This document shows, one piece after another, positions 2,712 to 56,934 of a DNA stretch of 64,000 nt (within the stretch, counting starts at the first letter, position 1; each line of letters starts with the position of its first letter). This stretch comes from an uncultured virus (IMG/VR IMGVR_UViG_3300032397_000009) (taxonomy: Duplodnaviria > Heunggongvirae > Uroviricota > Caudoviricetes). The notes beneath the pieces were generated by a model. That model was not told where the DNA came from. It searched no databases and saw only the letters and a list, made by a program, of their open reading frames with translations. The position numbers and the translations under genes were made by a program. The stretch is from the IMG/VR virus record IMGVR_UViG_3300032397_000009, one strand, 5' to 3'.

Positions 2712-2740
2712 TTGACGCTTGCGATTCGTTTTGCTACCGC
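2712..2740 (+). promoter_or_regulatory. sigma70-like rightward promoter
   Basis: TTGACG-N17-TACCGC; mirror of 2558-2586. Confidence 0.55.
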
Positions 2741-2774
2741 CTCGGACGTGGAGAAAACCTCGGGTAGATCCCGC

Positions 2775-4055: not shown

Positions 4056-4510
4056 TAACTACGACAGTTCCATACGATACTAAAAAGACTTGGTACTACG
4101 TCATTCCCACCGGTTATTAGAGACATCAAAACCCGATGTCACTATTGTTCTTGGTCGAATTTAGCTTTAATTCCGACCACTTACCTAATTAGAGACATAA
4201 ATAGAGACTTTGCACCAACTACTGTCCCCCCCCCTCCCCCCTCCCCTATGTACGCATGTGCGCGCGGATTTCGTGCAGATCTAATGTCTGTATTTTTTTT
4301 TATATATATATATACAGGGAATCACTAAGGAATTTGGCAAGGAAATAGAGACATCGGGCCATGTCTGAATAAAACCTGTGGCACTTCTAATAATGCGTAA
4401 TCATTGTAGAAATAATTCAGCAGACCTCTGGGTCTGAATAGTTTCTATTATTGGAAGCCTGACTTCCACCTGGAATCTCGGCTTCCACAGTTGGAAGCCT
4501 GACTTCCACC
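4056..4510. other. AT-rich non-coding region, candidate replication origin
   Basis: Abrupt AT enrichment, T and TA runs, TAGAGACAT at 4118, 4190, 4346, three palindromic boxes at 4451-4510. Confidence 0.55.
4451..4510. repeat. three tandem palindromic TGGAA(G/T)-N5-CTTCCA boxes
   Basis: TTGGAAGCCTGACTTCCACC at 4451 and 4491; variant at 4471. Confidence 0.85.
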
Positions 4511-4603
4511 CAGCCTTCCTTCCCTTCGTCGACGGCCCCGCGAGGAGCGGTTTGAGCCACCGCCCCTCCGCGACGAGGCCCTCCCTGCCCTGTTCCTATT
4601 TTC

Positions 4604-4632
4604 TTGACTTCCGCAGATCGTTCTTCTACGCC
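4604..4632 (+). promoter_or_regulatory. sigma70-like promoter
   Basis: TTGACT-N17-TACGCC; spacer resembles those at 2558 and 2712 (shared TCGTT). Confidence 0.55.
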
Positions 4633-4790
4633 ACGGCATGAAACCATGAGAAGAGGAGATGCAAGGGCACAAGGGGACCATAGGAACACTCGTTTCCATG
4701 GGCCCCCATGGGGGTGTGGAAACAACCAACTGAGGCCCTGGAGCTACAATTTTTGTTCGAAGAAGTTGAAAACGAGAGGAGACGGTAGCA

Positions 4791-5432
4791 GTGCAATACA
4801 AAGTGAAGATCATCACCAGGACTTTCGGGCCGGTCTGCCGAGAGACGGAAACCGTTTTCACAACGCCCGACGTGCTGGCGCCGTCGACGAAGGAAGTCCA
4901 GCACATGTTCGAGGAGGCCACGGCTCAGCGCTTTGCGGTGGGCGTGGTCGAGGAGCGGCCCATCGTGATGAACGGCTTCGGGCAGTTGTTCTTGGTGATG
5001 GGAGATGGCGAGGAGAAGCTCCTTGGCAAGAACGTGCCGCAGACCATCGGCTCGCTCGACTTCACCGCCGAGCTCGTGCGTGAGCCCTGGAAGCGCAAGG
5101 ATAACCGCAACCTCCTCCTGCGCCTCTGGCACTGGCTCATCGGGGCGCGCTGCCACAACTGCTTCTACTTCGACCAGCAGAGCGCCGTCGAGTGGCGGGA
5201 CAGGGTGACGCACACCTTCCAGGAGGGGCTCGTCGCGCGCATGTGGGACGATGTCACCAAGATCAGCGCCGAGCAGGCCTACGTCCCCGACATCCCCAAG
5301 GACGATTTCGGGTACTGCGCGAAGCAGACCAACGGGCTGTCGGGTTGCCTTCCGGCCTGCCGGTATTACAAGAGGATGTTGAAGACCAAGAAGAAGACGG
5401 CCGACAACACCGTGCTGCGCCGCTACTCTTGA
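4791..5432 (+). CDS. hypothetical Cys-cluster protein
   Basis: GAGGAG RBS; CHNC, GYC, C-x3-C; ends DNTVLRRYS. Confidence 0.7.
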   Translation: MQYKVKIITRTFGPVCRETETVFTTPDVLAPSTKEVQHMFEEATAQRFAVGVVEERPIVMNGFGQLFLVMGDGEEKLLGKNVPQTIGSLDFTAELVREPWKRKDNRNLLLRLWHWLIGARCHNCFYFDQQSAVEWRDRVTHTFQEGLVARMWDDVTKISAEQAYVPDIPKDDFGYCAKQTNGLSGCLPACRYYKRMLKTKKKTADNTVLRRYS

Positions 5433-5471
5433 TAGAGCGCGGGCACCGAGACAGAGCGTGAAAGGAACCGA
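5402..5471 (+). repeat. 70-bp direct repeat, copy 1
   Basis: 69/70 identical to 33119-33188. Confidence 0.95.
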
Positions 5472-32849: not shown

Positions 32850-33149
32850 ATGAACTTCGGCGAAATCGGGGCAGTTGCCATCACCAGCGCCATCTCGGGT
32901 GCGATCACCACGGGCACGTTCTATGCCTATGACATGGCGAAGAAGAAGAAGAAGAGCAGCCTGAAGTCGGCGATCTTCGCCGGGGCCGTCTCCGGGGCGG
33001 TCAGCCTGATCTCGGGCATGATCGCGGTCGCGTACTACAACTCGAGGCAGATCCCTCCGCAGACGGCCGGCGTGCATCGCCTGGGGCAGTACATGCCGGC
33101 TCCGCGGATCGTGACGTACGACAACACCGTACTGCGCCGCTACTCTTGA
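32850..33149 (+). CDS. two-TM protein ending DNTVLRRYS
   Basis: TM-KKKKK-TM; AGGAG RBS. Confidence 0.65.
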   Translation: MNFGEIGAVAITSAISGAITTGTFYAYDMAKKKKKSSLKSAIFAGAVSGAVSLISGMIAVAYYNSRQIPPQTAGVHRLGQYMPAPRIVTYDNTVLRRYS

Positions 33150-33188
33150 TAGAGCGCGGGCACCGAGACAGAGCGTGAAAGGAACCGA
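33119..33188 (+). repeat. 70-bp direct repeat, copy 2
   Basis: 69/70 identical to 5402-5471. Confidence 0.95.
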
Positions 33189-38448: not shown

Positions 38449-39894
38449 ATGGCCAAGCGCAGAGCTCGTCGAGACAAGTGGAGGGCCGGGTTCATCGACC
38501 TGTGCCGCGTCGACGACCACGGCGAGGTCCACTGCGACGACAACCCGAAGACCGCCAAGAAGTTCGGCGTGGACCGCTACCTGCCCATCGACAAGAACAA
38601 GAAGGTCTGCGCGGACTGGGACACCAGCATCCCCCTGACGAAAGAGGGGAACCGATCTCCCAAGGCCTGCCGCAAGTGGGTGATGAAGAAGTACGCCGAG
38701 GAGGTCAAGGGCAAGCCAGGCCCTCGGACTCGCAAGGTCGGCGGCAAGTGGGGCTCGAAGCAGGGCGCGCCGTTCTTCTCGAGCACGAGCAAGGTGCATG
38801 CGGCGACGTTCGGGGTGCCGCCGGCCGCGTCGTGCCCGGCGATCCAGACGCCGGTCCTCACCTGGCTCAAGGACGCCATCGACGACCCGAAATTGCAGAA
38901 GCCGGATGCGATGATCAACCGGCTCTTCGAGCAGATCCCGCGCAAGTGCCTGGCCTGCTACGCCACGAGCGGGAACTACGCCTACGCCGAGACGCAGCAG
39001 GCGATGGCGAACCGCATGGAGTTTTTCAACAAGACGCCGAAGAAGGATGTCGTCAAGCAACTCGTGTACGCGATCTCTCACGCCGGCGAGGAGAACTGCA
39101 TCCCTGGGAAGGGCTGCAAGTTCACACCAGGCGTGCAGCCGTCGCACTTCCGAGCGTTCGACAGCGGCGACTTCCAGGGCATCCGCGACGTCGAGATCTG
39201 GACCGACGTCGTCAAGGCGATGCCCGAGACGAAATTCTGGTTCCCGACGACCGCGTACGCCGGGCTGTGCCACTCCTCTCCGCAGGCGACGGCGAAGTTT
39301 CTGCGGGCCCTCCGCGCGCTCAACGCCCGACCGAACGCCGTGGTGCGGCCGAGCTCGAGGGGCCTCGACGTGCCGGCCGCCAAGGTCAAGGGGCTCGGTC
39401 CCGGCTCGGCGGTCGTCGAGAAGGTGACATCGGCCAGGGGATCCGAATCCTTCTACACCGAGGGCAAGAACCTGTACGCCAAGCCCGGCAAGGAGAGCAA
39501 CCGGACGAAGATCTGCGACGAGGCGGGATCCTGCACGTCGCACTGGATCTGCCCCGGCAACTGTGCGATCTGCCGAAAATGCTGGAACAAGGTCGACCCG
39601 GTGGTCTACCGCCGGCACGGCCTGAAGCCGTACGCGAAGAACATCCAGAGGCTCGTGCGGAAGGTCACGGGGCTCGAGGAGCACCTGGCGACGTCAGAGA
39701 CGACCAAGAAGTCGCGCGAGAAGATCCCGATATTCGACGCGGCTAACGCCAAGATCCAGGAGACGTTCGGCAAGTTGTTCAACGAGATGTTCGACGGGCC
39801 GGCGCCGCCCAAGCTTGTGTGGAAGAAGATCGTCAAGCGCGCCACGCCGTTGGCTCCCGCGAAAGTCCCGAAGGGAAAGGCAGAGGCAGAGTGA
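38449..39894 (+). CDS. GP88-like (radical-SAM-related) protein with basic N-terminal extension
   Basis: SCP...CLACYAxxGNY, FRAFDSGDF, FWFPT, CPGNCAICRKCW. Confidence 0.7.
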   Translation: MAKRRARRDKWRAGFIDLCRVDDHGEVHCDDNPKTAKKFGVDRYLPIDKNKKVCADWDTSIPLTKEGNRSPKACRKWVMKKYAEEVKGKPGPRTRKVGGKWGSKQGAPFFSSTSKVHAATFGVPPAASCPAIQTPVLTWLKDAIDDPKLQKPDAMINRLFEQIPRKCLACYATSGNYAYAETQQAMANRMEFFNKTPKKDVVKQLVYAISHAGEENCIPGKGCKFTPGVQPSHFRAFDSGDFQGIRDVEIWTDVVKAMPETKFWFPTTAYAGLCHSSPQATAKFLRALRALNARPNAVVRPSSRGLDVPAAKVKGLGPGSAVVEKVTSARGSESFYTEGKNLYAKPGKESNRTKICDEAGSCTSHWICPGNCAICRKCWNKVDPVVYRRHGLKPYAKNIQRLVRKVTGLEEHLATSETTKKSREKIPIFDAANAKIQETFGKLFNEMFDGPAPPKLVWKKIVKRATPLAPAKVPKGKAEAE

Positions 39895-40562
39895 TGGACC
39901 GGCGCTACTATCTGGCGAGCTACCCGAGATCTGGGAATACGCTCGCGCGCCTCCTGCTGCGGCACCACTTCGGTCTGAACGTACCGACGATCTACTATCT
40001 GGATCGCTCGAAGATCCCAACCTCTCCTGCCGAGCCATTGGGCTCTGGAGATGTAGATCCAGTGACCAGCCCTTCTCCACCGATCGGATTGTGGAAAACC
40101 CATGAAATCGTTCCCGAGGAAGGCGTCATCGGGGCCATCTTGGTCGTGCGCGACGCTCGCGACGCCGAGGTGTCGTTCGCGCATTTCAAGCGTGACATCG
40201 AGGGGAAGAAGAATTGCAACCTTCGCCACCACCTAAAGCGCCTCTGCCGCAGCACCAGATGGTCGGAATTCAACGAGCATTGGCTGAGCCAGAAGAACGT
40301 CGCCGTGGTTCGATACGAAAATCTGATCGACTACAAGGTCGTCATCTCAATCCTAGGCGAGGCACTCGAGAAGATCGGGATCGAGCCCAAGGTCCGCACC
40401 AGTGAGCCAATCGAGACGTTCGCCGAGCTCTCTGTCGGGAATCCTAACTTCTTCAGGCGCGGCATCGTGGGATCTTGGAAGGATGAGATGCCGAACTCCG
40501 TGAAGAGGTATTTTTGGTCGACACACGGAGCGATGATGCTGCGTTTGGGGTATGGTGGGTAA
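39894..40562 (+). CDS. sulfotransferase domain protein
   Basis: LASYPRSGNT PAPS loop, KTH, VRDARDAEVS, RYENL, FFRRGIVGSWK. Confidence 0.9.
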   Translation: MDRRYYLASYPRSGNTLARLLLRHHFGLNVPTIYYLDRSKIPTSPAEPLGSGDVDPVTSPSPPIGLWKTHEIVPEEGVIGAILVVRDARDAEVSFAHFKRDIEGKKNCNLRHHLKRLCRSTRWSEFNEHWLSQKNVAVVRYENLIDYKVVISILGEALEKIGIEPKVRTSEPIETFAELSVGNPNFFRRGIVGSWKDEMPNSVKRYFWSTHGAMMLRLGYGG

Positions 40563-40572
40563 GGAGAAAAAC

Positions 40573-40758
40573 ATGAAAACAGGAACGAAGGTGATGATCG
40601 GGGCGGGGGTCGTGGCGCTCGGCGTCGGCGGCTACCTGCTGTACAACTACTTCTCGAGGGGAACAGGCGCGCTCACTCGGAACGCGCAGATAGCCCTGCA
40701 GTCGAGACGACCGGTCTACTCCGTAACCACCCCCAGGGGGATGAAATCGACGGTCTAG
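40573..40758 (+). CDS. small N-anchored membrane protein, similar N-terminus to 31220
   Basis: MKTGTKVMIGAGVVALGVGGYLLY; AAGGAG RBS. Confidence 0.65.
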   Translation: MKTGTKVMIGAGVVALGVGGYLLYNYFSRGTGALTRNAQIALQSRRPVYSVTTPRGMKSTV

Positions 40759-40836
40759 ATCCTTGAAGGTGTCGCGCGCAGGAGTTATCCTTCAGACACG
40801 CAGAGCTGCCAGGGCAGTAGCGAAAGGGAGACGGAA

Positions 40837-41106
40837 ATGGCAAAGTCGAAGGGATATCGCACCCATCGCGGTTACACAGCCGCCGTTCGGCGTGGCCTGA
40901 GATCCGGCAAGTACAAGACGACTTACAAGAAGATCACGCGCGACTTCTGCTACACGAAGCGCGGCCGGCCGGTGCGCTGCGGGCTCTACGGCGCGCAGTA
41001 CAAGAAGCCGATCCGGAGGTCGTTCTACCGCTGCATCGACGCCGTCACGAAGCGGTTCGCGTCGAAGTGGATGTGCAACTGCAAGCGCAAGAACAAGAAG
41101 CGGTAG
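40837..41106 (+). CDS. very basic Cys-rich small protein
   Basis: K/R-rich; CYTKRGRPVRC. Confidence 0.65.
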   Translation: MAKSKGYRTHRGYTAAVRRGLRSGKYKTTYKKITRDFCYTKRGRPVRCGLYGAQYKKPIRRSFYRCIDAVTKRFASKWMCNCKRKNKKR

Positions 41107-41110
41107 GGCC

Positions 41111-41383
41111 ATGCGTGAGAAGATCAAGCACCACTGGGGCAGGTTCAGCACCTGGGTGAGCTCCAAGGTCCGCAGGAAGGGCCGCAAGCCCGTGTGCGTC
41201 GACCTCTTTCGCCTCAAGACCAAGCGCGGCCTGCGGTGCGTCTGCGCCGCCATGACGCGCGACGGCCGCTTCTCGACGATACCGAGGAAGAAACACCTGT
41301 GCCCGAGCCGCTCGAAGGCCATGACCTGGAAGCAGGCTCAGGCGCACTACGCGAACAGGAAGTGCTGCCCGTGTCCAAAGTAA
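41111..41383 (+). CDS. basic Cys-rich TKRG-family protein
   Basis: FRLKTKRGLRCVC...DGRF...TWKQA. Confidence 0.65.
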   Translation: MREKIKHHWGRFSTWVSSKVRRKGRKPVCVDLFRLKTKRGLRCVCAAMTRDGRFSTIPRKKHLCPSRSKAMTWKQAQAHYANRKCCPCPK

Positions 41384-41550
41384 GGTGCCAGGCCCATTTC
41401 CGGTTGCGGACCAAGCGCGGAGAGCGCTGCGCCTGCGCGGCGACATCGAGCGACGGGCGCTTCGTGACCGTGTTTCAGAAGGACGGTGCCTGCCAGGTCG
41501 GATCTCCTGTGCTGACCTGGGAACAGGCCAAGGCGCGCTACGGCAAGTAG
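41371..41550 (+). CDS. basic Cys-rich TKRG-family protein
   Basis: GTG start; FRLRTKRGERCAC...DGRF...TWEQA. Confidence 0.6.
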   Translation: MSKVRCQAHFRLRTKRGERCACAATSSDGRFVTVFQKDGACQVGSPVLTWEQAKARYGK

Positions 41551-41562
41551 CGGAGGTATGAC

Positions 41563-41772
41563 ATGAGAAAAAGAGGACGTCGGCGCGGTCGGAGGATCGG
41601 CAAGCGCGTGGTCTGCTCGGTGAAGAGCTACAAGATGAGCACGAAGCGCGGACCGCGCTGCGTCGCGGTCTGCAGCACGCCGGGCGGCTGGAAGATCCCG
41701 CGGTTCCGCAAGAGCTCGAGTTGCGCGCGGGGCAAGGCGCGGAGCTGGAAGAGCATCCGGGGCGCTCGCTGA
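41563..41772 (+). CDS. basic Cys-rich TKRG-family protein
   Basis: GGAGG RBS; STKRGPRCV...RFRKSSSC. Confidence 0.65.
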   Translation: MRKRGRRRGRRIGKRVVCSVKSYKMSTKRGPRCVAVCSTPGGWKIPRFRKSSSCARGKARSWKSIRGAR

Positions 41773-41948
41773 TGACGCGCCGTCGCTGCACCATGCGCGC
41801 AGAGCCCAAGGGCAACCGCAAGCGCGGTCGCTGTCTGCGCTGGGCGCGGCCGACGGCACAGAAGAAGTCCGATGCGAAGAAGATCTTCAAGCTCGGCGAG
41901 CACGCGAGGAAGCGCGTCAGGAAGACGAGGAAACGCCATGCGTCGTAG
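41772..41948 (+). CDS. very basic small protein
   Basis: MTRRRC...RKRVRKTRKRHAS; coupled start. Confidence 0.55.
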   Translation: MTRRRCTMRAEPKGNRKRGRCLRWARPTAQKKSDAKKIFKLGEHARKRVRKTRKRHAS

Positions 41949-42150
41949 ATCGTCGAACCGCTGCCGGCGCTACAAGCGAGGAGATCTCACGTTCAAGTGG
42001 TGTGGCAGCCGCACCATCAACGTGTTCGAGAACGGCCGAGAGATCGACGTGATTTCCTTCGGCTACAACGAGGGCGACGAGCGCCCCACCGCCGCGGACG
42101 CCCGTGCCGCCATCGCGCGACACCTGAAGTACCGGCGGGGAGAAGACTGA
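41938..42150 (+). CDS. small protein with basic N-terminus
   Basis: GAGGA RBS; MRRRSSNRCRRYKRG. Confidence 0.55.
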   Translation: MRRRSSNRCRRYKRGDLTFKWCGSRTINVFENGREIDVISFGYNEGDERPTAADARAAIARHLKYRRGED

Positions 42151-42220
42151 AGAACCTCGGCCGGCGGCTACAGTTGCCGCCGCCGATAACGCTGGCCGAG
42201 GGGCCAGAGGAGAGACGAAG

Positions 42221-42358
42221 ATGGCCAGGAAACGCTGCACCACGAAACGCGCTCGCAAGGGGCTCTGCTCCAAGAAGTCCTCGAAGTCCAAGAAGGGCCA
42301 CTGCGTGAAGCGGGCGAAGACCGGTCGCCGGCGCTGCATCAAGCGCTCGAAGCGATAG
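42221..42358 (+). CDS. protamine-like peptide (45 aa, not in ORF track)
   Basis: GAGGAG RBS; MARKRCTTKRARKGLCSKKSSKSKKGHCVKRAKTGRRRCIKRSKR: 22 K/R, 4 Cys, no acidic residue. Confidence 0.7.
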   Translation: MARKRCTTKRARKGLCSKKSSKSKKGHCVKRAKTGRRRCIKRSKR

Positions 42359-42417
42359 ACGAACACCTTCAGCGACGAGCCAGCCGAGGCGACTAACCCT
42401 CCCGCGGCGAGCTTGGG

Positions 42418-42457
42418 ACGCCCCCAGGAACCCTCAGGCACCTGGGGGCGTTTCTTT
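42418..42457 (+). terminator. Rho-independent terminator
   Basis: 11-bp stem ACGCCCCCAGG/CCTGGGGGCGT followed by TTCTTT. Confidence 0.7.
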
Positions 42458-42470
42458 CGACGAGGGGAGC

Positions 42471-43139
42471 ATGAAGAACGACCTCTGGCAGTCAAACCTG
42501 CGTTTTCTTCTCCGGTCGCCCAAGCACATCATCGACGCCGGCGCGAACACCGGCCAGACGGTCGATAGATACCGGAGGTGGTGGCCCAACTCCGAGATCC
42601 ACTGCCTCGAGCCCGTTCAGAGCGCCTACAACATCCTCGAGAAGAACTGGAAGTCCCAGCCCGGTGTCCACCTCCACCAGTGCGCCCTCGGCGCCTCCTG
42701 TGGGCGTGCAGAGATTCACACGGGCAAGAACACCGAGGTGTCGTCCCTCCTGCCGCACATGGTGGAGTACAGCGGCGAGTTCGCGATCGACGAGCACTAC
42801 GCCGTGGACGTCCTGACACTCGACGCGTTCATGGACGCCAAGGGGCTCGACCACGTCGACCTCCTGAAGATGGATCTCCAGGGTGGTGAGCTCGCGGCGC
42901 TAGAGGGGGCGCAATGGGCGCTCGAGCGAAATGCTTTCGACGCGATCTTCTCCGAGATCTGGCTGGTCGCCCCATACCAGGGAGCTCCCCACTACTGGGA
43001 GATCGCGCTCCACCTAGCGCAGTTCGACTACCTGACGTGGTGGATCAATATCGAGCAGGGCATACCGGGCGAGGGGCGCTGGGGCGACGTGCTGTTCGTG
43101 AGCCGGGCTCTGGCCAAGAAGAACGGATACGGGGACTGA
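42471..43139 (+). CDS. FkbM-family methyltransferase
   Basis: IIDAGANTG, CLEP, TLD, DLLKMDLQGGELAALEGA. Confidence 0.9.
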   Translation: MKNDLWQSNLRFLLRSPKHIIDAGANTGQTVDRYRRWWPNSEIHCLEPVQSAYNILEKNWKSQPGVHLHQCALGASCGRAEIHTGKNTEVSSLLPHMVEYSGEFAIDEHYAVDVLTLDAFMDAKGLDHVDLLKMDLQGGELAALEGAQWALERNAFDAIFSEIWLVAPYQGAPHYWEIALHLAQFDYLTWWINIEQGIPGEGRWGDVLFVSRALAKKNGYGD

Positions 43140-43143
43140 TCCA

Positions 43144-43821
43144 GTGGACGGCGACCTTAGACGGTATTCTCACCAGGCCCATCGCCCAGATCTCTGGATG
43201 AAGAATTCGAAGGCCAATGTCGTTGTCGTGACCCACTGCAACCGCAAGTGTCCACGCTGCTGCATGTCCGACATGGTGCGCGGACAACCACCGCACTTCG
43301 TCGATCCCGATGTCGTTTTCCGTGACGTCGAGGCGCTGGGAGATGTTGGCGAGGTGATAATCACCGGAGGCGAGGCCACGCTCCATCCAGAATTTCTTGC
43401 CGTGGCAGAGTGCGCTCGCATCGCCCGCGGCGACCGCCTCCTCTCGCTGTTCACGAACGGAGCGATGGTCCTACGACACCAGAAGGCACTTCAGTTTTTC
43501 GACCAGATCTACATGAGCGTTTACAGCTCAACGTCGAACGCCGGCACCCCGACCGACTGGGGGCTCATCAAGAAAATTCGCGCTGCGTGCTCCCAAAAGG
43601 TCAAGCTCAAGCTCTGGCACATGATCCATAAAGTCGGTGTTGGCGGGCATCGACCCTGTGTACGCCTATTCGATACGGTCAGCGTGCTCGAGGGCCGCGT
43701 GTACTCTTGTTGTGTAGCAAACGGCATTGCCGGCGCACAGTCGACCGAGCTCGGTCCGGGCTGGGCAAAGAGGCTCCTCAGGGTGCCGGCGCCGTGCGAA
43801 CGATGCGTCTTTTCGAAGTAG
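43144..43821 (+). CDS. radical SAM protein
   Basis: CNRKCPRC, ITGGEATLHP, FTNG, C-terminal Cys cluster; alternative start 43198. Confidence 0.85.
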   Translation: MDGDLRRYSHQAHRPDLWMKNSKANVVVVTHCNRKCPRCCMSDMVRGQPPHFVDPDVVFRDVEALGDVGEVIITGGEATLHPEFLAVAECARIARGDRLLSLFTNGAMVLRHQKALQFFDQIYMSVYSSTSNAGTPTDWGLIKKIRAACSQKVKLKLWHMIHKVGVGGHRPCVRLFDTVSVLEGRVYSCCVANGIAGAQSTELGPGWAKRLLRVPAPCERCVFSK

Positions 43822-43829
43822 GCGAGAAC

Positions 43830-44789
43830 ATGGTGCATAAAAACAGGCGGATATGGATCCAGAGGGTTCTGCACTCGAACGACGAGCTCCCCAGGACCAA
43901 CGAGGAGCTATTCAAGAACGCCGGATTCGAGATCGTGGACAGTCCCAAGGATGCGGACTACGGAATCATCAACCACATGTGGGGGGACAGCTACTTCGCA
44001 CCGCTTCCCAGGAAACGGGTCATCGCTCTCTACGACGAGCCGCCGGCCATTTGTCACGTTCCGATCTACCGGAACCCTCAGTCGTTCCACACATGGTTCA
44101 CGTTTGTCTCGATGACGGGGAAGAACGTGTTCCAGCTGACCGACGATCCGATTGTGTATCCGTACCCGCCGGAAACCTGGCGCGACAGGACACGCACGGA
44201 CACGACACTGAGAACGCGCGGAGTCTTTGCCCGCTACACGACCAGGAAGGAATGCGCGGCCACGGCCGCAGAGTTCGGGAGCGTTCCTCTCTACCAATTG
44301 CGGCACCGTTTTCTTCTGGAACTACACAAGTACGGAACATTTTTAGACTGTGCAGGAAAGGGGATCAGCGGGGCGCAAACTCCTCTCGGAAACTGGCCGA
44401 ACGTGAAGAGGTTCAGCCTCGAGCACACCAAGGCCGACTTCTGTCTCTGCTCCGAAAACTCGGCGATCGACAACTACATCACCGAGAAGATCCACCACGC
44501 CATGCAGCGCGACTTCGTTGCGCTCTACCTGGGGAGCCCGCGGATCGCGGAGTTCGTGCCGCCTGGCGCGTTCATAAACCTCAACGAGTACTTCTCGAAG
44601 TCCAAGTGCCGCGTCGACTCCCGCGCCGTCCACGAGCTATTGCAGGGGATGACCCAGGACGAGTACGACCGGATCCTTCGCACGGCCAGAAATTGGCGTC
44701 GCACGGATCTGCTCGAGGAGCGGTATACCGCGGCGCGGGACAAGATCACTCGGGCCGTAATTTCAAGACTGAACGAAGATCCTCGATGA
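43830..44789 (+). CDS. GT10 (alpha-1,3-fucosyltransferase-like) glycosyltransferase
   Basis: FCLCSENSAIDNYITEKIHHA...LYLG...FIN. Confidence 0.8.
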   Translation: MVHKNRRIWIQRVLHSNDELPRTNEELFKNAGFEIVDSPKDADYGIINHMWGDSYFAPLPRKRVIALYDEPPAICHVPIYRNPQSFHTWFTFVSMTGKNVFQLTDDPIVYPYPPETWRDRTRTDTTLRTRGVFARYTTRKECAATAAEFGSVPLYQLRHRFLLELHKYGTFLDCAGKGISGAQTPLGNWPNVKRFSLEHTKADFCLCSENSAIDNYITEKIHHAMQRDFVALYLGSPRIAEFVPPGAFINLNEYFSKSKCRVDSRAVHELLQGMTQDEYDRILRTARNWRRTDLLEERYTAARDKITRAVISRLNEDPR

Positions 44790-45585
44790 GGCGCCACGTC
44801 TCGGTCCACTCCTCACGACCCACATCCTTTGGAGGATAGGTGTACAGCGGGAGGCCGGCGACGGTATCGAGGGTGGGCTGCCGAGGAGCGACACCCTGCC
44901 ACACGTTCCTGCCGTGAACCAGGAGCAGGCCGCCCAGGTTCGGATCGTTGTAGGTCATGTTCCACTTGATGCGGTCGTACGGGATCCAGGGCTTACGGAA
45001 ATCCGTGTTGATTTCGAAGCCGGGATCCTTTCCTATCAACTGTGCCCAGGCAGGCACCGGCATGCCGATGATCTCGTGGATCCAGACGCAGTCCTCTCCG
45101 CATGACAGGGTAGAGAACCGCACGTTGGCGGCCAAGGAGCGCCTCCACGCCGTGCCCTGGATGTGGAGCCCGACGCCGTCTCCCATGGGCCACAGCATCA
45201 TGGATCTCAGGTAGAGCCGGTGCGTCATCGGCATCGCCGTGGCGTCGGCGAGGCCGGCCTCGATGGGGCCGGCGAGGAGCTCGACACGCCGTGGGTGATA
45301 CCAGTCGTCGTCATCGAACCAGAGGATGATGTCCGCGTCCGTCGCGTCGAGGGCCATCTGCCTGAGCTCGCCGAGGGTCAGGCTCTCCGGTTCGGCATCG
45401 GACACGACCGACAGATCGGCCTCGTCCAGTTTGTCGACGAGCACATTGCAGAAGACGTTCGGATCTTTGTAGTTCGTGGCGACGATGACCTCGTCGACCT
45501 GGCGCGTCTGCTTCCTGATCTGGTGCGTCCACCACGGGATGAACTCCGGTCGGTTCGTGACGACGAGGGCGGCGACGGTGCTCAT
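44746..45585 (-). CDS. GT2/GT-A glycosyltransferase
   Basis: QT..VDEVIV, TLGELR, WFDDDDWYHPRR, GED. Confidence 0.8.
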   Translation of the reverse strand: MSTVAALVVTNRPEFIPWWTHQIRKQTRQVDEVIVATNYKDPNVFCNVLVDKLDEADLSVVSDAEPESLTLGELRQMALDATDADIILWFDDDDWYHPRRVELLAGPIEAGLADATAMPMTHRLYLRSMMLWPMGDGVGLHIQGTAWRRSLAANVRFSTLSCGEDCVWIHEIIGMPVPAWAQLIGKDPGFEINTDFRKPWIPYDRIKWNMTYNDPNLGGLLLVHGRNVWQGVAPRQPTLDTVAGLPLYTYPPKDVGREEWTETWRLIEDLRSVLKLRPE

Positions 45586-49328: not shown

Positions 49329-49907
49329 TTACTCCTTCTCGATGTTCGACTCGATGGTTCCGTCGATGTACGCGACGACACGATCGAACAACCAGCGAGC
49401 CTCGATGACAGGATCGAGGTCGAGGTCGAGGTCGAGGTCGAGGTCGAGGGCGCGGGCGAGGGCGAGGTCGAGGGCGAGGTCGAGGTCGAGGTCGAGGGCG
49501 CGGGCGAGGGCGAGGTCGAGGGCGCGGGCGAGGGCGAGGTCGAGGTCGCGGGCGAGGTCGAGGGCGCGGTACGCTTGGCGCATTTCCAAATACGTGGCGC
49601 GCCCGAACGCAAACCGTCGGGCGACGGCCACGTATTCGGAAATGCGCCCCCCCCATTTCGGATCGCGCGTCGCCACGTATCCGGCCGCGCGATCGAGGAT
49701 GTCGCAGATGAGCAGAACGGCGTCGCGGTTGGTCGGCAGCAGCCGCGCGAGCACCCAACAGCGGTCAGACTCGGAAATGTCGAGCGCTGCGATCTGCGTT
49801 GCCGATAGCTCGCCATTCGGACCACCCATGAGTTCCTCGAGCCTAGAGCGAGGATACCTGTCACAGGGGTTGAGATGTTCGATGTGGTCTACGTTGAATG
49901 TTCTCAT
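49329..49907 (-). CDS. Imm5-like helical protein with DL/AL/AR dipeptide repeat
   Basis: ICDILDR...VARRFAFGRAT then (LDLA/LARA)n; GGAGGAG upstream. Confidence 0.6.
   Translation of the reverse strand: MRTFNVDHIEHLNPCDRYPRSRLEELMGGPNGELSATQIAALDISESDRCWVLARLLPTNRDAVLLICDILDRAAGYVATRDPKWGGRISEYVAVARRFAFGRATYLEMRQAYRALDLARDLDLALARALDLALARALDLDLDLALDLALARALDLDLDLDLDLDPVIEARWLFDRVVAYIDGTIESNIEKE
49413..49569. repeat. degenerate hexamer tandem repeat
   Basis: GTCGAG/GGCGAG/GCGCGG units. Confidence 0.9.
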
Positions 49908-50106
49908 CTACTCCTCCTTGCACTTCGCGCTCGCTTCGAGCGCCTCCTTGAGGGCGTCCGCGAACGTGGCGTGCTCGGAGAACGTGAAGCGCCCGTCGTT
50001 GTAGCGGATCGTCAACAACCAGATCCCCTCCTGCTTGCTCATGTACACGGATTTTATGTGCCTCTCCTTGTTGTGCGGCCCCCGCCGCTGTGCCTACCTG
50101 TACGAC

Positions 50107-50164: not shown

Positions 50165-50186
50165 CAGGTCTACCATGGTAGACCTG
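50165..50186. promoter_or_regulatory. perfect 22-bp palindrome, candidate operator
   Basis: CAGGTCTACCATGGTAGACCTG between divergent blocks. Confidence 0.55.
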
Positions 50187-50310
50187 CCAGTTGGATAATG
50201 CACCCTTATGACCCCGGTCGACGCATTTTTAAAATAATCTTGCCATTTCTGCGTCTGTCTTGGTAGCGTGCCAATGCGGCCGGCACGGCCGGCAACACAG
50301 GGAGGTCGTC

Positions 50311-50973
50311 ATGAATAAGCTGCTGCTGTCGATGGTTGTTCTCCTCGCCGGGTGCGGCGACGACCCTGGGTGGTATCCGGAAAGCGACGGGGGTGATGCC
50401 GACACGGACACCGACACGGACACCGATACCGATACGGACACCGATACCGATACGGACACCGACACCGACACGGATACCGACACGGACACCGATACCGACA
50501 CTGATACGGATACCGACACCGACACCGACACGGATACCGACATCGACACGGATACCGACACCGACAGCGACCCGGAGTGCGTCGAGGGCAGCCTCGACAC
50601 CTCCACGGGGCTATGCTGGAGCCCTGCAACCGACAGCACGACGTCAGTCTGGGGCGCGACTGACTACTGCGACGCCATGACGCTCGACGGGCAGGACGAC
50701 TGGCGCCTCCCTACCCGCGCGGAGATGATCGGGATCCTCTCAGGTTGCGACAGCGACGTCTCCGGGGGTGGCAGTGGTATGTGCAACTCGTGCGAGGAAA
50801 GCCCGACGTGCGCGGCCCTCCTCGGGTGGAATCCGTACGATTTCTGGACCGGTACGCCGCAGAGCGGTGACGGCTGGAGCTATTGGTGGGTGGTCGACTA
50901 CGGGACCGGCAGTGTCAGTTGGGATTACTGCGGCGGCGCGCATCGCACACACTGCGTGCGCTCGACGCTGTAG
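50311..50973 (+). CDS. lipoprotein with Asp-Thr repeat and DUF1566/Lcl-like domain
   Basis: GGAGG RBS; LLAGC lipobox; DTSTGLCW, DDWRLPTRAEM, FWT, HCVR. Confidence 0.85.
   Translation: MNKLLLSMVVLLAGCGDDPGWYPESDGGDADTDTDTDTDTDTDTDTDTDTDTDTDTDTDTDTDTDTDTDTDTDTDTDIDTDTDTDSDPECVEGSLDTSTGLCWSPATDSTTSVWGATDYCDAMTLDGQDDWRLPTRAEMIGILSGCDSDVSGGGSGMCNSCEESPTCAALLGWNPYDFWTGTPQSGDGWSYWWVVDYGTGSVSWDYCGGAHRTHCVRSTL
50401..50562 (+). repeat. GAYACN hexamer repeat (27 units, Asp-Thr, one Asp-Ile)
   Basis: Direct reading. Confidence 0.92.
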
Positions 50974-51715: not shown

Positions 51716-52200
51716 GGATCGTGTGTTCCGCCTGCGGCGGGACCGGGCTCTACGCGGGCTCGAGTGAGTGGGGGGACTGCGCGGTCGTCTGCACGCGCTG
51801 CCGAGGGACCGGGGGCGTCGATCTCGAGTACGAGGAGTTCAAGAACCGCAGGCCGGCCCAGCACATCAAGCGCGTGTTCAGGCAGATCGCCGGCGCGAAG
51901 CACACCCACAAGGACGCGGAGGGCATCAGGTTCTCGAAGGCCGGCTGCACCTATGCCAACTGGATCACCGGGACCGAGCCGCTCCCCGTCCGCGATCTCT
52001 ACTGTCCGTACCGCTGGACTGGACAGATGATGAAGCTGGAGTCCCACGAGGCGCACGAGCAGTACGAGCAGATGTGCTCGGACCACATCAACGCCCTGCT
52101 CGGCGAGAAAATCGAGCGCTGCCCGCGTCACCAGGATCCCGAAAAGCTCGCCGCTTGCTGGCGGCGTTTCGACGAGCTCACCAAAGGAGGGAAGTCATGA
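51703..52200 (+). CDS. protein with DnaJ-type CxxCxGxG zinc knuckles
   Basis: CSACGGTG...CTRCRGTG. Confidence 0.65.
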   Translation: MSTMRIVCSACGGTGLYAGSSEWGDCAVVCTRCRGTGGVDLEYEEFKNRRPAQHIKRVFRQIAGAKHTHKDAEGIRFSKAGCTYANWITGTEPLPVRDLYCPYRWTGQMMKLESHEAHEQYEQMCSDHINALLGEKIERCPRHQDPEKLAACWRRFDELTKGGKS

Positions 52201-52781
52201 TCACCAACCTGCCGAAGGCACACAACCTGCTATCGGCCCCGTTCGTCCTCACAGGAAAGGACATCATCAACAACCGGCACCTCTTCGCGGCTGAACTATT
52301 CGACACCGTCGAGCTGCGCCTCCACATCGAGTACCAGACCCACGAGCCCGAGGAGCCCGACGACTTCGACGACCTGATGGAGATCCGCAACTCCAAGCAC
52401 TTCGGCTTCGCCGGCAAGGTCACCTGCCCCGGCTGCGAGGAGGTCGACGACGACGAGACGTGCGAGTGGTGCGGCGGCAACGGCTTGGTGACCGTCGAGG
52501 CCTGGGACGAGTGGCTCGAGCAGGAGAAGGGCTGCAAGTCCTACGTCAAGGGCTGCGAGCGGGGCTGCAAGCGGAAATCGTGCCCCCACGACGAGCTGCG
52601 CTGCCTCCTCGACGTGCCCGTCCTGGTGCTCGAGGCGCGCAAGATGAGTGGCAACTGGACGTCCCGTGGGGACAGCGTGCAGGGCTTCAAGCTGAAGGGG
52701 ATAGTCGGAAAACCGGATGCGCTGCGTCGGTATCTATCCCTCGTCGCCACCTCCATCGGCTTCGGCCTCCTGGACGACTGA
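52197..52781 (+). CDS. Cys-rich hypothetical protein
   Basis: AGGAGG RBS; CPGC...CEWCGGNG. Confidence 0.6.
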   Translation: MITNLPKAHNLLSAPFVLTGKDIINNRHLFAAELFDTVELRLHIEYQTHEPEEPDDFDDLMEIRNSKHFGFAGKVTCPGCEEVDDDETCEWCGGNGLVTVEAWDEWLEQEKGCKSYVKGCERGCKRKSCPHDELRCLLDVPVLVLEARKMSGNWTSRGDSVQGFKLKGIVGKPDALRRYLSLVATSIGFGLLDD

Positions 52782-53822
52782 GCGTCTCCTCCGCTTCGGT
52801 TTCATGGTCTTCTCGCGCTCCTTCTGTCTCGCCATCATAGTTACCAGATGGGACTGGACCCGCTTGATGTCGCGGAGGCCCGAGAGGTGGGAAACGCCCA
52901 CGAAATTCTTCGTGAGCTCGAAGTAACGAAGCGCCGAGGCCCAGCGGCATGACAGGATCCAGTGCTTGGTCCACTCGACGCCGGCCTTGTCGAAAACGAA
53001 GTGCGCGACGCGGCGGATCGCGGTGTTCGCCGACTGCTCCCGCCATTCCCTGCTCGACTGCGGGGAAATGATATCGGCCACGGTCGTCCAGGTCCATGGC
53101 CACGCGAGGAGCGCCTCGAGCTCGGAACGCACGATCTCCGTCGGGATCGAGCGGGGGCCCCTCTTGGGACGCCACAGCACCAGGGATTCGGTGGACAGCG
53201 CGTGGGAGATCTGCTCGCGAGTCAGCACGCAGAGCTCGAGGATGCTCACGCCGGCCTTGAGGATCATGCGGAACGTCGGCCACCCCCAGGGCCACCGCGG
53301 GTCGTCGCGCAGCACCTCGGCCGCCTCGAGCAGCGCCTGGATCTCGGACCTCGTGTAGGGGCAGTACTGTGTTGCCTCGGCCTTGCGCTCGTAGACGATC
53401 TTCTTCTGCGAGCCCCTGATCTCCTGGATCTTGGCGATGAGATCGAGGTTCTTCGAGAAGCGCGCGTAGCGGAGCAGGCAGGTCTGAAAATTGGCGAGTG
53501 TGCTCTGCTTGTACGTCGTCGACAGGAGGATCTTCTCCGGATAGCTGCGGCTCTCGTCGTGGTTCCAGGTCAGACAGCACACGTTCCATACAGTGGCGGC
53601 GGCGTTCTGGGCGGTGCTCTCGTTCAGGCCCTCGTGCCGTACCAGCCAGCGCACGAAGTCCCTGAGGGCCTCCTGACCCTCCCGGTAGTGCTCGTGGACC
53701 GCCGTGACCAGGCGCTTGCTGTTGATCGTGCCGAACTCGACCTCCTGGCCCTCGAGTAGGCACTTGCCGCGGTCGAGCACATCGGGCCTGGTGTCGATCA
53801 TCCACTCCTTGAATTTTCTCAT
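52734..53822 (-). CDS. tyrosine-recombinase-fold protein, catalytic residues degenerate
   Basis: YTRSEIQALL, AGVSILELCVL, PKRGPRSIP, LSCRWASA, VSHLSGLRDIKRVQSH follow integrase box order. Confidence 0.7.
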   Translation of the reverse strand: MRKFKEWMIDTRPDVLDRGKCLLEGQEVEFGTINSKRLVTAVHEHYREGQEALRDFVRWLVRHEGLNESTAQNAAATVWNVCCLTWNHDESRSYPEKILLSTTYKQSTLANFQTCLLRYARFSKNLDLIAKIQEIRGSQKKIVYERKAEATQYCPYTRSEIQALLEAAEVLRDDPRWPWGWPTFRMILKAGVSILELCVLTREQISHALSTESLVLWRPKRGPRSIPTEIVRSELEALLAWPWTWTTVADIISPQSSREWREQSANTAIRRVAHFVFDKAGVEWTKHWILSCRWASALRYFELTKNFVGVSHLSGLRDIKRVQSHLVTMMARQKEREKTMKPKRRRRSVVQEAEADGGGDEG

Positions 53823-54602: not shown

Positions 54603-55463
54603 TCACCTCTGCACCGGGAACTGCCTCGGCCACTCCCAGGCCGTACTGGGGCCGAGCGTCCACCGCCTCGCGTTGTCCTTCACGAAACAGGGTACTCCGT
54701 AATCGGCGCACCACGAAACGATCCGCCTCGCCGCAGCGATCATAGGCCAGGCATCGGAAGCCCCCGGTCCAGTCTGAAATCCGACGACAACCCAATCGAG
54801 GCCGGCGAGGAGGTCGGGGTCGAAGACGGTATCGAGGAGCGGCTCGACGCTCGCCCACAACACGCTCGGACCGCGCTTTCCCCCGAGACATGAAGGACCG
54901 ACCTGCTCTCGCATGACCCGCACCTTGTCGAGTAGCGTCGCGATGCGCTCCGTGTCCGCGTTGCTCGTGACGCTCACACCGAGGTGGACATTGGCGGGCC
55001 AACGGATATTGAGGCTAAGCAGGTCGGGGCGCTTCGTGAGGAGGAGAACCGTGTGACCGGCCGCGCCCACTCGCTCGGACCACTTGGCTGTCTCGTTCTG
55101 CACCTCAAGGGTAAAGAGATCGCTGAAACGCTCTCCGTTCCCTCCGAAGCTCCGGGCCGTTCCCTTGAAGCACATGTCTCCCATGCTGCCGACGAACACG
55201 CGCCGGGGTCGCACCGTGTATCCCGCGTGCATGCCACCGCGCCGGTACTTGGTCAGGCGCTCCTGCTCGCGTTGTAGAACGTCCCAGTGGAACGCGACCT
55301 CGAACGGGTCTTCGTCGATGCCGCTGTTCTTGACCCGCTCGTACACGGAGCCTGGGATCGATCCCAACCGACGTGCCATGCGCCGAGCGTAGCACCACGA
55401 GCAGCCACCGCGACAGCCGGTGAAGGGGTTGATGGTGATGTCACACCAGTCGATCTTGGTCAT
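54603..55463 (-). CDS. phage Gp37/Gp68 (DUF5131) radical-SAM-like protein
   Basis: TKIDWCD...NPFTGCRGGCSWCYA, VFVGSMGD, LLTKRP, SVEPLL, WVVVG. Confidence 0.88.
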   Translation of the reverse strand: MTKIDWCDITINPFTGCRGGCSWCYARRMARRLGSIPGSVYERVKNSGIDEDPFEVAFHWDVLQREQERLTKYRRGGMHAGYTVRPRRVFVGSMGDMCFKGTARSFGGNGERFSDLFTLEVQNETAKWSERVGAAGHTVLLLTKRPDLLSLNIRWPANVHLGVSVTSNADTERIATLLDKVRVMREQVGPSCLGGKRGPSVLWASVEPLLDTVFDPDLLAGLDWVVVGFQTGPGASDAWPMIAAARRIVSWCADYGVPCFVKDNARRWTLGPSTAWEWPRQFPVQR

Positions 55464-56314
55464 CGCGCAACCTCTTCTTCCACCACCGTGGGCACAACCC
55501 TGGACTGCTCATCTTTACTCTCAATGTCAGCAAGCGACTTGAGCATGTCCTTCGCACCTTTCTCGACGCAACGCAGGCTGTCCACCATGTTTCGGATGCT
55601 GCCCCCATGGTACTCGCCGTCCAGCGCGGAACCGAGACGATAGCAGTGCGAGATCCTCGCCACGTCGACGCGCCAGTTGAAGGGGTCGGTGAGGTCGATT
55701 CCAGTTCCGATCTTGAAATCCTCGACTCGTTTCTGTAGGTGTCCGAAATCGCGTTTGACGATCCCAGCCTCTATCGGAGCCAACGTCTTCCCGTGTTCGA
55801 TCGCTTTATTGATTTCGTCCTGAATATTCTCGCGCCTGACCCAGCCCTCGTTCTCCTTGGCGACCATTCCCTGGGCCCGGCGCAGGATCGACGCGAGAAA
55901 TCCTCTGGATATCGGTGCCGCCTCCGTCATCGTCGCCGCACGCGCGACGCGCAGCCCACCCTTCTCCTTCGCAACCATGAGCCCCCAGGCCGGAGGGAGC
56001 TCGAGGTCGACGTCCCGCACGAGATCGGGTGGAGCGACCACCCACCACTCGTCGCAGTACTTCGCCACGGTTTCGGCCTTCATCGGGTCGGCGGCCTCTT
56101 TCTTCAGATCCTGACGAGAAACCTTGACCTCGAACCCTCGCAGCGTCAGCCCCCTCGACGGCCAGAGAGACATCGCGACAGCGTCGGCGTAGCGCCGCAC
56201 GTTGCTGCCGGTGGAGTTCGCCACCTCGAAGAAGCAGGCCCACTCCGGTGGCGCGTGGACGGCGGCGATGCGCTTACAAAGATCGCCTGCGGTGATGCGG
56301 TCGTTTCGGTTCAT
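55460..56314 (-). CDS. MmcB-like PD-(D/E)xK nuclease-fold protein
   Basis: FEV...RYADA...LWPSRG...GFEVKVSRQD...WGL. Confidence 0.75.
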   Translation of the reverse strand: MNRNDRITAGDLCKRIAAVHAPPEWACFFEVANSTGSNVRRYADAVAMSLWPSRGLTLRGFEVKVSRQDLKKEAADPMKAETVAKYCDEWWVVAPPDLVRDVDLELPPAWGLMVAKEKGGLRVARAATMTEAAPISRGFLASILRRAQGMVAKENEGWVRRENIQDEINKAIEHGKTLAPIEAGIVKRDFGHLQKRVEDFKIGTGIDLTDPFNWRVDVARISHCYRLGSALDGEYHGGSIRNMVDSLRCVEKGAKDMLKSLADIESKDEQSRVVPTVVEEEVAR

Positions 56315-56934
56315 CAGATCCTCCGCTCTGCGACCTCGAACCCGTACGCCCAGACCCACTCATTCTTGATGACGTGTCGATTCTTCTTCGGATAGACACT
56401 GAGCCACAACTGGAAGAACGCATCGCTGGCGCGCGCCGGCGGTGTCGGTGGTGGCATCTCGCGCCTTCCCTGCCACCACCAGAGGGCGCCCTCCCGCTCC
56501 GCGTCTGCATCCGTGATCTCGCCGAGCCGCTCGGCCTTCACCTCTGTGATCCGCAGAACGAACGGCGCCAGAGCGGCCGGCATGATGCGGGAGGTCTTCC
56601 AGGCGTATTTGAACGGCTTCAGTTCTTCCTCTTTCACCCTGATGGTGTTTGCGAATCGATAATGCAATTCGGTCTTGTCACCGTTTTGAATGTACGCGCA
56701 CGTCGCCGCCACGAACTCGCCGACCTTGAAGCGAGGACGGAGCACGGAGATGTTTCCATCCCACCGGATAGACGGGGCCGGGAGTCCATTCGGATCCTCG
56801 GTGTAAAACTTCCAGAACATGCGGCCCTTAGCATCCGGCGTCGCCCGCTTCTCCGGCCTGCGAGTCATGGACTTCTGCGACGGATTCGCCGCGATCGCCC
56901 TCATCATGTCGTCGCTGAACGCCAGGCGCTTCAT
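56314..56934 (-). CDS. ASCH/PUA-like phage protein
   Basis: FSDDMMRAI...KSMTRR, IMP...LRITEVKAERLGEITDADAEREG...WVW. Confidence 0.7.
   Translation of the reverse strand: MKRLAFSDDMMRAIAANPSQKSMTRRPEKRATPDAKGRMFWKFYTEDPNGLPAPSIRWDGNISVLRPRFKVGEFVAATCAYIQNGDKTELHYRFANTIRVKEEELKPFKYAWKTSRIMPAALAPFVLRITEVKAERLGEITDADAEREGALWWWQGRREMPPPTPPARASDAFFQLWLSVYPKKNRHVIKNEWVWAYGFEVAERRI

Follow-up and report, generated by a model that had tools for sequence, protein, structure and literature searches.

Tyrosine recombinases that have lost catalysis and serve as DNA binders are documented in a few cases: MrpR/YopR and SroF, TnsF, and VLF-1. MrpR (YopR), encoded by the Bacillus phage SPbeta, combines a recombinase fold with loss of the recombinase function and is presented in the published account as a repressor acting on repeated boxes (PMC10516654). 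That account describes the binding of a 15-bp element in about 10 promoter regions and the retention of Tyr and Lys by MrpR, and its authors suggest that recruitment of this sort is more widespread than anticipated (PMC10516654). SroF, encoded by phage phi3T, is described as clamping an asymmetric 26-bp box as a monomer (bioRxiv 10.1101/2025.11.27.690993). The MrpR and SroF structures considered here are PDB 8a0a, 8bj6, 8bpz, 9rgl, and 9rd5. TnsF, from Tn6022-like Tn7 transposons, is reported to use an inactivated tyrosine recombinase domain as a target selector (PMC10293859). Here we analyze a gene that invites comparison with these systems. It lies in a 64,000-nucleotide (nt) stretch of DNA, hereafter the window, from an uncultured Caudoviricetes virus (IMG/VR record IMGVR_UViG_3300032397_000009). 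The gene, P0001, occupies positions 52734..53822 of the minus strand, stop codon included, and encodes a degenerate protein of 362 amino acids (aa) with a tyrosine recombinase fold; it is defined by its open reading frame (ORF) and translation, its codon composition, and seven full-length homologs with the same start.

By analogy with MrpR/YopR/SroF, we consider it somewhat better than an even bet, with a probability of roughly 55%, that P0001 is a non-cutting regulator or architectural protein that binds DNA. Within that reading, an MrpR-type master repressor of lysogeny would account for perhaps a third. An initial annotation made from the sequence letters had proposed such a repurposing and had named a DNA-binding regulator, an architectural protein, or a dominant-negative inhibitor of host Xer proteins or integrases as the possible outcomes. 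The repurposed, non-decaying and non-cutting part of that proposal finds good support in the homologs, the tree, the predicted fold, the basic charge of the protein, and the MrpR/YopR/SroF precedents. Nothing specific was found for the dominant-negative role.

Fold and catalytic positions of P0001

The gene itself is as first described, with the same coordinates, a length of 362 aa, an unbroken frame (362 codons and a stop), and translational coupling. Its G+C content is 0.87 at third codon positions (GC3) and 0.46 at second positions (GC2), a contrast typical of coding DNA at the 63% GC of the window, so the ORF is a real coding sequence. The full-length homologs in the alignment start at the Met of P0001, which identifies the 362-aa form, and not a 375-aa form from a TTG at 53861, as the right one. 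The ATG of P0001 (53822-53820) and the TGA of the upstream gene P0087 (53821-53819) share an ATGA overlap at 53819..53822 on the minus strand, which couples translation of P0001 to that of P0087.

Searched alone, P0001 was recognized in none of the libraries. PF00589 was not matched in Pfam even at E 10, and only sub-threshold noise was returned there and in a PHROGs scan. NCBIfam and PADLOC scans gave no match, and a phmmer search of the PDB sequences had no hit at E 10. The identification of P0001 as a tyrosine recombinase relative depends instead on its family profile and fold. A word-indexed protein search supplied seven close homologs (44-52% identity), and an exhaustive phmmer search with P0001 as a single-sequence query against 1.84 billion representatives supplied 79 proteins at E <= 0.001. 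The family is surely larger than this, as the representatives came from a single-sequence search. P0001, the seven close homologs and 72 of the 79 phmmer matches make up the 80-sequence alignment used throughout, in which 35 of the 80 proteins match PF00589.

The profile of the 80 relatives matches the XerC-like archaeal structure 4a8e (E 4.8e-22), XerD 1a0p (E 1.3e-19), and XerH (E 5.6e-19) in the PDB. An AlphaFold2 model built on the same alignment reached a mean predicted local distance difference test score (pLDDT) of 91.4 and a predicted template modeling score (pTM) of 0.79. The top structures returned by Foldseek for this model were XerA, lambda Int, IntI4, and Tn1549 Int (best E 8.6e-6), and its matches in the BFVD collection were phage proteins named integrase. 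On profile and predicted fold, then, P0001 is a true tyrosine recombinase homolog with a core-binding domain and a catalytic-type domain.

The structural alignments cover residues 49-339 of the model only. Residues 1-48 (53679..53822, minus strand, as are all P0001 positions below) form an N-terminal extension outside all structural matches, modeled as a helix, a beta hairpin at 16-33, and the start of another helix. They are followed by a helical core-binding-type domain (residues 49-138; 53409..53678), which aligns to the N-terminal domains of XerA, XerH, IntI4, lambda Int, and Cre, and in the profile comparison to 4a8e. A low-confidence inter-domain linker with no predicted secondary structure (residues 139-157; 53352..53408; a block of pLDDT 58 at 141-150) leads into the catalytic-type domain, which lacks a catalytic center and ends in a long helix at 319-339 (residues 158-340; 52803..53351). 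The last 22 residues (341-362; 52737..52802) are predicted to be a disordered tail, basic and then acidic (KPKRRRRSVV...GGGDEG), with pLDDT below 50 at 348-362. This charged tail is kept in the close homologs, and its last 16 codons overlap the convergent neighboring gene.

The family itself provides the reference for the active site, since 31 of the 80 aligned proteins hold the complete set of Arg, Lys, His, Arg, His/Trp, and Tyr. In a HMMER alignment of the profile to XerD, these columns fall on the XerD motifs GLR, GKG, LRH, LGH, and Y. P0001 retains one of the six residues, the six positions reading S193, P219, L290, R293, L316, and H325. At the first Arg (Arg I), GxR has become GVS with the codon AGC for S193 (53244..53246). 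The catalytic Lys of the beta hairpin, a position absent from the initial annotation, is P219 (CCC; 53166..53168), and the adjoining K220 is not conserved. HxxR has become LSCR (52944..52955), where L290 (CTG) replaces the first His (His I) and R293 (CGC), invariant among P0001 and its seven close homologs, is the retained second Arg (Arg II). The second His or Trp (His II) is L316 (CTC; 52875..52877), with SGL for LGH, and the nucleophilic Tyr is H325 (CAT; 52848..52850), in VQSH.

The earlier assignment of GVS, LSCR, SGL, and VQSH to these motifs therefore proved correct against the intact relatives. Its description of the active site as erased is accurate for five of the six positions and overstated for the rest, as Arg II and an auxiliary acid three residues past the Arg I position, E196, are still present. 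The codons of S193, L316, and H325 (AGC, CTC, and CAT) are each one base away from Arg, His, and Tyr codons, as had been pointed out, and the CTG of L290 is two bases from His. These short distances are coincidental, because the homologs have other residues at the same positions.

It had been suggested that another Tyr, such as the one in LRYF, might occupy the active site. This residue, Y300, is the sole Tyr of the catalytic-type domain; the intact relatives have the Leu of an RLY in its column, which is not an active-site one, and we reject Y300 as a substitute nucleophile. It is well supported by the alignment that P0001 would be unable to cleave DNA or form a covalent intermediate.

An old and conserved degenerate lineage

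A second concern raised at the outset was that the close homologs might be intact and this copy decaying. All seven close homologs are open, full length, and without Tyr at the nucleophile position, and each holds between one and three of the six catalytic residues. Across these eight sequences, with P0001 listed first, the nucleophile position reads H, K, K, K, E, R, R, R, so that His, Lys, or Arg stands there in seven of eight. The Arg I position reads S, R, K, R, S, R, R, R; the Lys position P, P, P, P, A, H, Q, V; the His I position L, H, K, Y, P, I, I, S; and the His II position L, S, S, T, V, S, S, T. Arg II is Arg in all eight. Seventy-one alignment columns are invariant in this group, and invariant residues flanking the catalytic positions or belonging to them include G191, R224, P227, R293, W294, H312, and R317. 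Drifting catalytic positions beside fixed neighbors fit a long-standing loss of chemistry with retention of structure.

The tree tells the same story on a larger scale. A maximum likelihood tree of the 80 sequences (IQ-TREE, LG+G4, quick search, midpoint root) splits at a branch with a support of 100 in the Shimodaira-Hasegawa-like approximate likelihood ratio test (SH-aLRT) into sides of 33 and 47 sequences. All 33 members of one side hold at least five of the six catalytic residues. Among the 47 on the other side, 46 hold four or fewer (45 of them three or fewer) and one, P0014, holds five. Only two changes on the tree explain the catalytic state of all 80 sequences, and the clade of P0001 and its seven close homologs also has a support of 100. 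The root is a midpoint, and the direction from intact to degenerate is inferred from the fact that the wider superfamily is catalytic. The proteins of the degenerate side are basic, with a median isoelectric point (pI) of 9.72 across its 47 members, compared with 9.48 for the 33 intact ones; P0001 has a pI of 9.41. Taken with the fold model, the homologs and the tree give good support to P0001 being a repurposed protein and not a decaying copy.

Only one of 44 degenerate members tested matched PF00589 at E <= 0.01, and the lineage is therefore invisible to routine annotation. A profile search with those 44 members returned no sequence beyond those already found. At the sensitivity used, no match to the family was found by tblastn among GenBank phages and PLSDB plasmids, and none in two scans of prokaryote contigs taken at one genome per species. 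When the intact member P0020 was the query, the only matches were generic integrases from Gordonia and Clostridioides phages, 30% identical across half of P0020. Searches of viral contigs with three of the alignments (A1, A6, and A7) recovered no related locus, and a fourth (A4) recovered one, L002. A search of metagenome contigs recovered one short locus, L001.

Genomic context is thus drawn from three loci: the window, L001, and L002. L001 is a 1,973-nt metagenome contig encoding the homolog P0004, and it repeats the layout of the window, with the recombinase-fold gene convergent with a homolog of the Cys-rich gene that neighbors P0001, which in turn follows a homolog of the window's small zinc-finger gene. 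L002, from a 65.6-kb IMG/VR viral contig, carries an intact member of the family (six of six residues; PF00589 at E 9e-15) near the end of an operon.

Proposed role, genomic setting and alternatives

P0001 is recorded on a single contig of 76,106 nt. The window is phage-like. Its long plus-strand block includes a DUF3987 primase/helicase, GroES, a tape-measure-like protein, a tail protein, RadC, GP88, and sugar-modification enzymes. The minus-strand block includes a C5 DNA methylase, DUF5131, and several PHROG families. The P0001 gene is the last of a leftward operon running from about 64000 down to 52734, and this operon is of early type, placing P0001 among genes of early functions and DNA metabolism and not among structural ones. 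In the same operon, at 54603-56359, a DUF5131 gene (Gp37/Gp68, radical-SAM-like) is followed by a gene resembling phrog_14517/phrog_5429, a "DNA repair protein"; the DUF5131 gene also matches the PADLOC candidate-defense models PDC-M41B and PDC-M30B.

The upstream gene of the coupled pair, P0087 (53819..54601, minus strand), encodes a 260-aa protein with an N-terminal helix-turn-helix (HTH) and two Cys clusters, whose Cys residues are invariant in an alignment with six homologs of 46-57% identity. A language-model lookup pointed to viral proteins of HTH_23/HTH_7 type with scores below 0.9, which is a lead only. In L002, about 2.4 kb upstream of the intact recombinase, a 351-aa protein has the same build: it matches HTH_7, HTH_23, and HTH_38 at or just under the Pfam cut-offs, and its C-terminal zinc ribbon is 45% identical to that of P0087 over 42 residues (E 9e-11). 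Homologs of P0001 and P0087 also occur on contigs of equal size (P0008/P0091 on 30,052 nt, P0094/P0095 on 4,789 nt, and P0096/P0089 on 10,038 nt). The agreement in contig size is indirect evidence that the two types of gene travel together. From the coupling and this linkage we hypothesize that the two proteins are partners.

In the mechanism we propose, P0001 descends from a phage Xer/integrase-type tyrosine recombinase whose two-domain DNA-clamping fold has stayed whole while cleavage has gone. Its core-binding and catalytic-type domains would wrap duplex DNA, as in its active relatives and SroF, and R293 with neighboring basic residues would grip the backbone at the site of the former scissile phosphate. 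A protein of this kind, which would form no covalent intermediate, may regulate the early or replication program in a site-specific way or act as its architectural factor, and it would probably do so together with the coupled helix-turn-helix/zinc-ribbon protein P0087.

Since MrpR and SroF bind boxes, recurring boxes were sought across the window. No k-mer in its intergenic DNA recurred above shuffled sequence, the only candidate being a GC-rich 10-mer with unrelated flanks, and recurrent dyads across the same DNA did not exceed shuffled controls. The dyad GCGCACT-N2-AGTGCGC occurs twice in the window, but 16 of 100 shuffles match that count at two mismatches. Local repeats are present. At 2638-2690, 11-bp direct repeats (3.5 perfect copies of GCGACGGATCT in a looser array with a 22-bp period) sit in a 463-nt gap directly upstream of the DUF3987 primase/helicase gene (2712-4055), where they look like replication-origin iterons or a regulator array. 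Next to them, at 2618-2638, is a hairpin that has a T-run.

Downstream of the same gene, an AT-rich non-coding region of 735 nt (4056-4790) has the look of an origin or operator array. In it, a motif of about 10 bp, WTAGAGACAT, occurs six times, in both orientations, around a T-run and TA-repeat stretch (4117-4354); the whole window has seven matches where 1.4 are expected, and none of 100 shuffles reaches seven. The region also holds three 17-bp dyads, TGGAAG-N5-CTTCCA, spaced by 19 and 21 bp (4452-4508). A perfect 22-bp palindrome, unique in sequence, lies at 50165-50186, where an AT-rich gap separates a small ORF that begins near 50043 on the minus strand from the divergent Lcl_C lipoprotein gene at 50260, and is likely an operator for some regulator. 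The palindromes that the initial annotation had named as candidate targets, at 2618, 4451, and 50165, exist, but a tie to P0001 was found for none of them.

These searches, and several other results, weigh against a regulatory role for P0001. Its DNA target was not found, a dispersed operator set like SPBRE is absent from the window, and the clusters at 2638-2690, 4117-4354, 4452-4508, and 50165-50186 are not assignable to it. The gene closes a long operon at its 3' end, and scans for promoters and terminators in its surroundings gave results at chance level, so that its own promoter-like signal does not rise above chance; both features are unlike those of a classical stand-alone repressor. 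About 12 kb of the 76-kb contig lie beyond the window. At an E of about 0.35, the sequence similarity to MrpR/YopR falls short of significance, so the functional analogy rests on fold and parallel loss.

Constraint on the gene also appears moderate. Measured against L001 (43% protein identity), the ratio of nonsynonymous to synonymous substitution rates (dN/dS) is 0.68 for P0001 and 0.40 for its convergent neighbor, with dS about 0.8; this is a weak and unreliable test, as L001 is the single relative with DNA, synonymous sites are probably saturated, and GC3 is constrained. All that it shows is a value not above 1 and a P0001 gene evolving faster than its neighbor. Finally, the predicted complex of P0001 and P0087 lends their partnership weak support, with a median score of 0.36 (runs of 0.20, 0.36, and 0.44), a best score of 0.00 among three controls, and a pLDDT of 59-62 for the partner. 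In calibration, the mark was reached by 116 of 157 solved complexes and by 2 of 215 mismatches, and at scores of 0.60 or lower by 18 of the 157 and by both mismatches, which means that a pass in that range is wrong more often than right unless the complex was likely beforehand.

A more ambitious form of the proposal is that an entire site-specific recombination module was domesticated. The integrase would have become a dead clamp and P0087, perhaps a former directionality or accessory factor, its co-factor, the two forming a switch that binds the repeat-rich, origin-like regions on either side of the primase/helicase gene (2249-2711 and 4056-4790) and controls replication or the transition from early to late expression. 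We regard this as unlikely. If true, the clade would be a deep one in uncultivated phages, invisible to Pfam and, among the representatives found, more numerous than its active sister lineage.

It is similarly doubtful that P0001 is a non-catalytic accessory subunit, which binds and bends a recombination site or pairs with an active recombinase, encoded by the phage outside the window or by the host (XerC/XerD), in the manner of inactive protomers in tetramers. The full recombinase architecture is retained, including the long C-terminal helix, and the proteins on the sister side of the tree are intact recombinases. In L002 the intact relative stands at a comparable place in its operon, again accompanied by a helix-turn-helix/zinc-ribbon gene of this type, and TnsF offers a reported precedent for an inactivated recombinase domain as a DNA-targeting subunit (PMC10293859). 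Yet a Pfam scan of 84 ORFs of the window found no active tyrosine or serine recombinase, nor a recognizable CI-type repressor. The window has no tRNA gene and no match to an Rfam family, and no evident att-type site was found beside the P0001 gene. An old and diverse degenerate clade also fits an autonomous function better than service to one partner enzyme.

The recombinase fold could have been turned to a function unrelated to DNA, as a protein scaffold, a virion protein, or an injected protein. The conserved, disordered, and highly charged tail could be an interaction or targeting element, and the failure to find a DNA site is in keeping with such a role. We consider it improbable, given the basic pI across the clade, the presence of Arg II in all eight close relatives, and the position of the gene among those for early functions. 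A dominant-negative inhibitor that occupies the sites of host Xer proteins or rival integrases, or poisons their tetramers, is more improbable still. P0001 is related to Xer at the profile level and has lost the catalytic set, as such an inhibitor might, but there is no evidence for dif-like sites or host specificity. In Cre-type enzymes the region past the Tyr mediates contacts between protomers; in P0001 a long helix and a charged tail stand in its place. The conserved coupling to a helix-turn-helix protein points instead to a function at sites on phage DNA.

There is only a slight chance that P0001 is still an enzyme, a recombinase or topoisomerase-like protein acting through non-canonical residues, such as H325 as nucleophile. 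Histidine acts as a phosphoryl-transfer nucleophile in other enzyme families, and Arg II and E196 are retained. Against this, the nucleophile position varies among the eight close relatives, as do Arg I, Lys, and both His positions, and Y300 stands where intact relatives have Leu. A recently inactivated integrase pseudogene, still open by chance, would account for the three codons one base from canonical but is refuted by the homolog alignment (seven open, full-length homologs at 44-52% identity, all without the Tyr), the states of the catalytic positions, the high GC3, and a tree on which the degenerate state marks a side of 47 representatives.

Several further features of the window deserve mention. 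Downstream of P0001, the convergent Cys-rich gene (52197..52781, plus strand) is an ORF with 59% identity to positions 757-1353 of L001. Its 3' end overlaps that of P0001 by 48 nt in the window (52734-52781) and by 180 nt in L001 (757-936). The acidic tail of P0001 may be partly constrained by the C-terminus of this gene, and convergent transcription could couple the expression of the two. A 76-nt repeat, 96% identical between 5396-5471 and 33113-33188, covers the final codons of two genes and the leader of the next (at 5489 and 33191); the proteins downstream are unrelated, and the repeat could be a terminator, promoter, or leader element common to both sites. Two long coding repeats with a hexanucleotide period face each other across the divergent region that holds the 22-bp palindrome. 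The one at 49372-49593, on the minus strand, is an Arg/Ser/Ala run read in the opposite-strand frame only, and the one at 50377-50604 encodes about 30 consecutive Asp-Thr dipeptides of the Lcl_C-domain protein (50260-50973). A cluster at 39819-45585 encodes a sulfotransferase, an FkbM methyltransferase, a radical SAM protein, a GT10 fucosyltransferase-like protein, and a GT2, sugar and modification enzymes that may decorate the host surface or the virion with glycans.

Comparison with known systems

The active Xer proteins and integrases (XerA 5hxy/4a8e, XerD 1a0p, XerH 5jk0, IntI4 2a3v, and lambda Int) are the best profile and structure matches of P0001 and share its domain order. Like them, it has Arg II and the auxiliary acidic residue. 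Unlike them, it has other residues at the nucleophile and at four more of the six catalytic positions, it leaves PF00589 unmatched, and it carries an additional 48-residue N-terminal element and a charged C-terminal tail. Set beside a lambda-type arm-binding domain, the N-terminal element consists of a helix and a beta hairpin and falls outside all whole-model structural alignments.

P0001 resembles TnsF in being a catalytically inactive derivative of an active recombinase lineage, and it would resemble TnsF further if it recognizes DNA. TnsF differs in having an N-terminal multi-zinc-finger region and in working with Tn7 core proteins. The N-terminus of P0001 has no Cys cluster, and its setting is a phage, where none of the 84 window ORFs scanned matched a transposon or transposase-type family in Pfam. 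The VLF-1 proteins of baculoviruses and nudiviruses are very late transcription factors of the recombinase family that have a role in gene expression and keep the catalytic tyrosine. The fold matches of P0001 among viral models include a VLF-1 from a nudivirus (rank 23, E 2.6e-4); VLF-1 comes from eukaryotic viruses, and the likeness is at the fold level only.

The closest parallel is with MrpR/YopR/SroF. P0001, too, is phage-encoded, has an integrase fold, and has lost catalytic residues, and by analogy it may bind DNA. The differences are several. The profile match to MrpR/YopR has an E of 0.34-0.36 over about 55 residues, which is not significant, and phmmer finds nothing. MrpR keeps Tyr and Lys, and P0001 has lost both. 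No dispersed, repeated box resembling SPBRE was found in the window. For P0001 the host is a high-GC, uncultivated one, the gene is coupled to a helix-turn-helix/zinc-ribbon partner, and the repressor role is putative. Because the P0001 family relates to Xer-type enzymes and has intact sisters, its inactivation is independent of that in MrpR/YopR/SroF.

The history of this family is unusually clear, with live and dead lineages flanking one well-supported branch. Forty-six representatives at the 50%-identity level show how diverse the dead lineage is, and its members are annotated as hypothetical proteins because they are essentially invisible to Pfam. The pair of lineages amounts to a natural experiment on which features of a recombinase are needed for DNA recognition and which for chemistry, and the conserved helix-turn-helix/zinc-ribbon partner provides a concrete experimental handle. 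Alongside MrpR/YopR/SroF and TnsF, P0001 adds an independent origin to an already known category.

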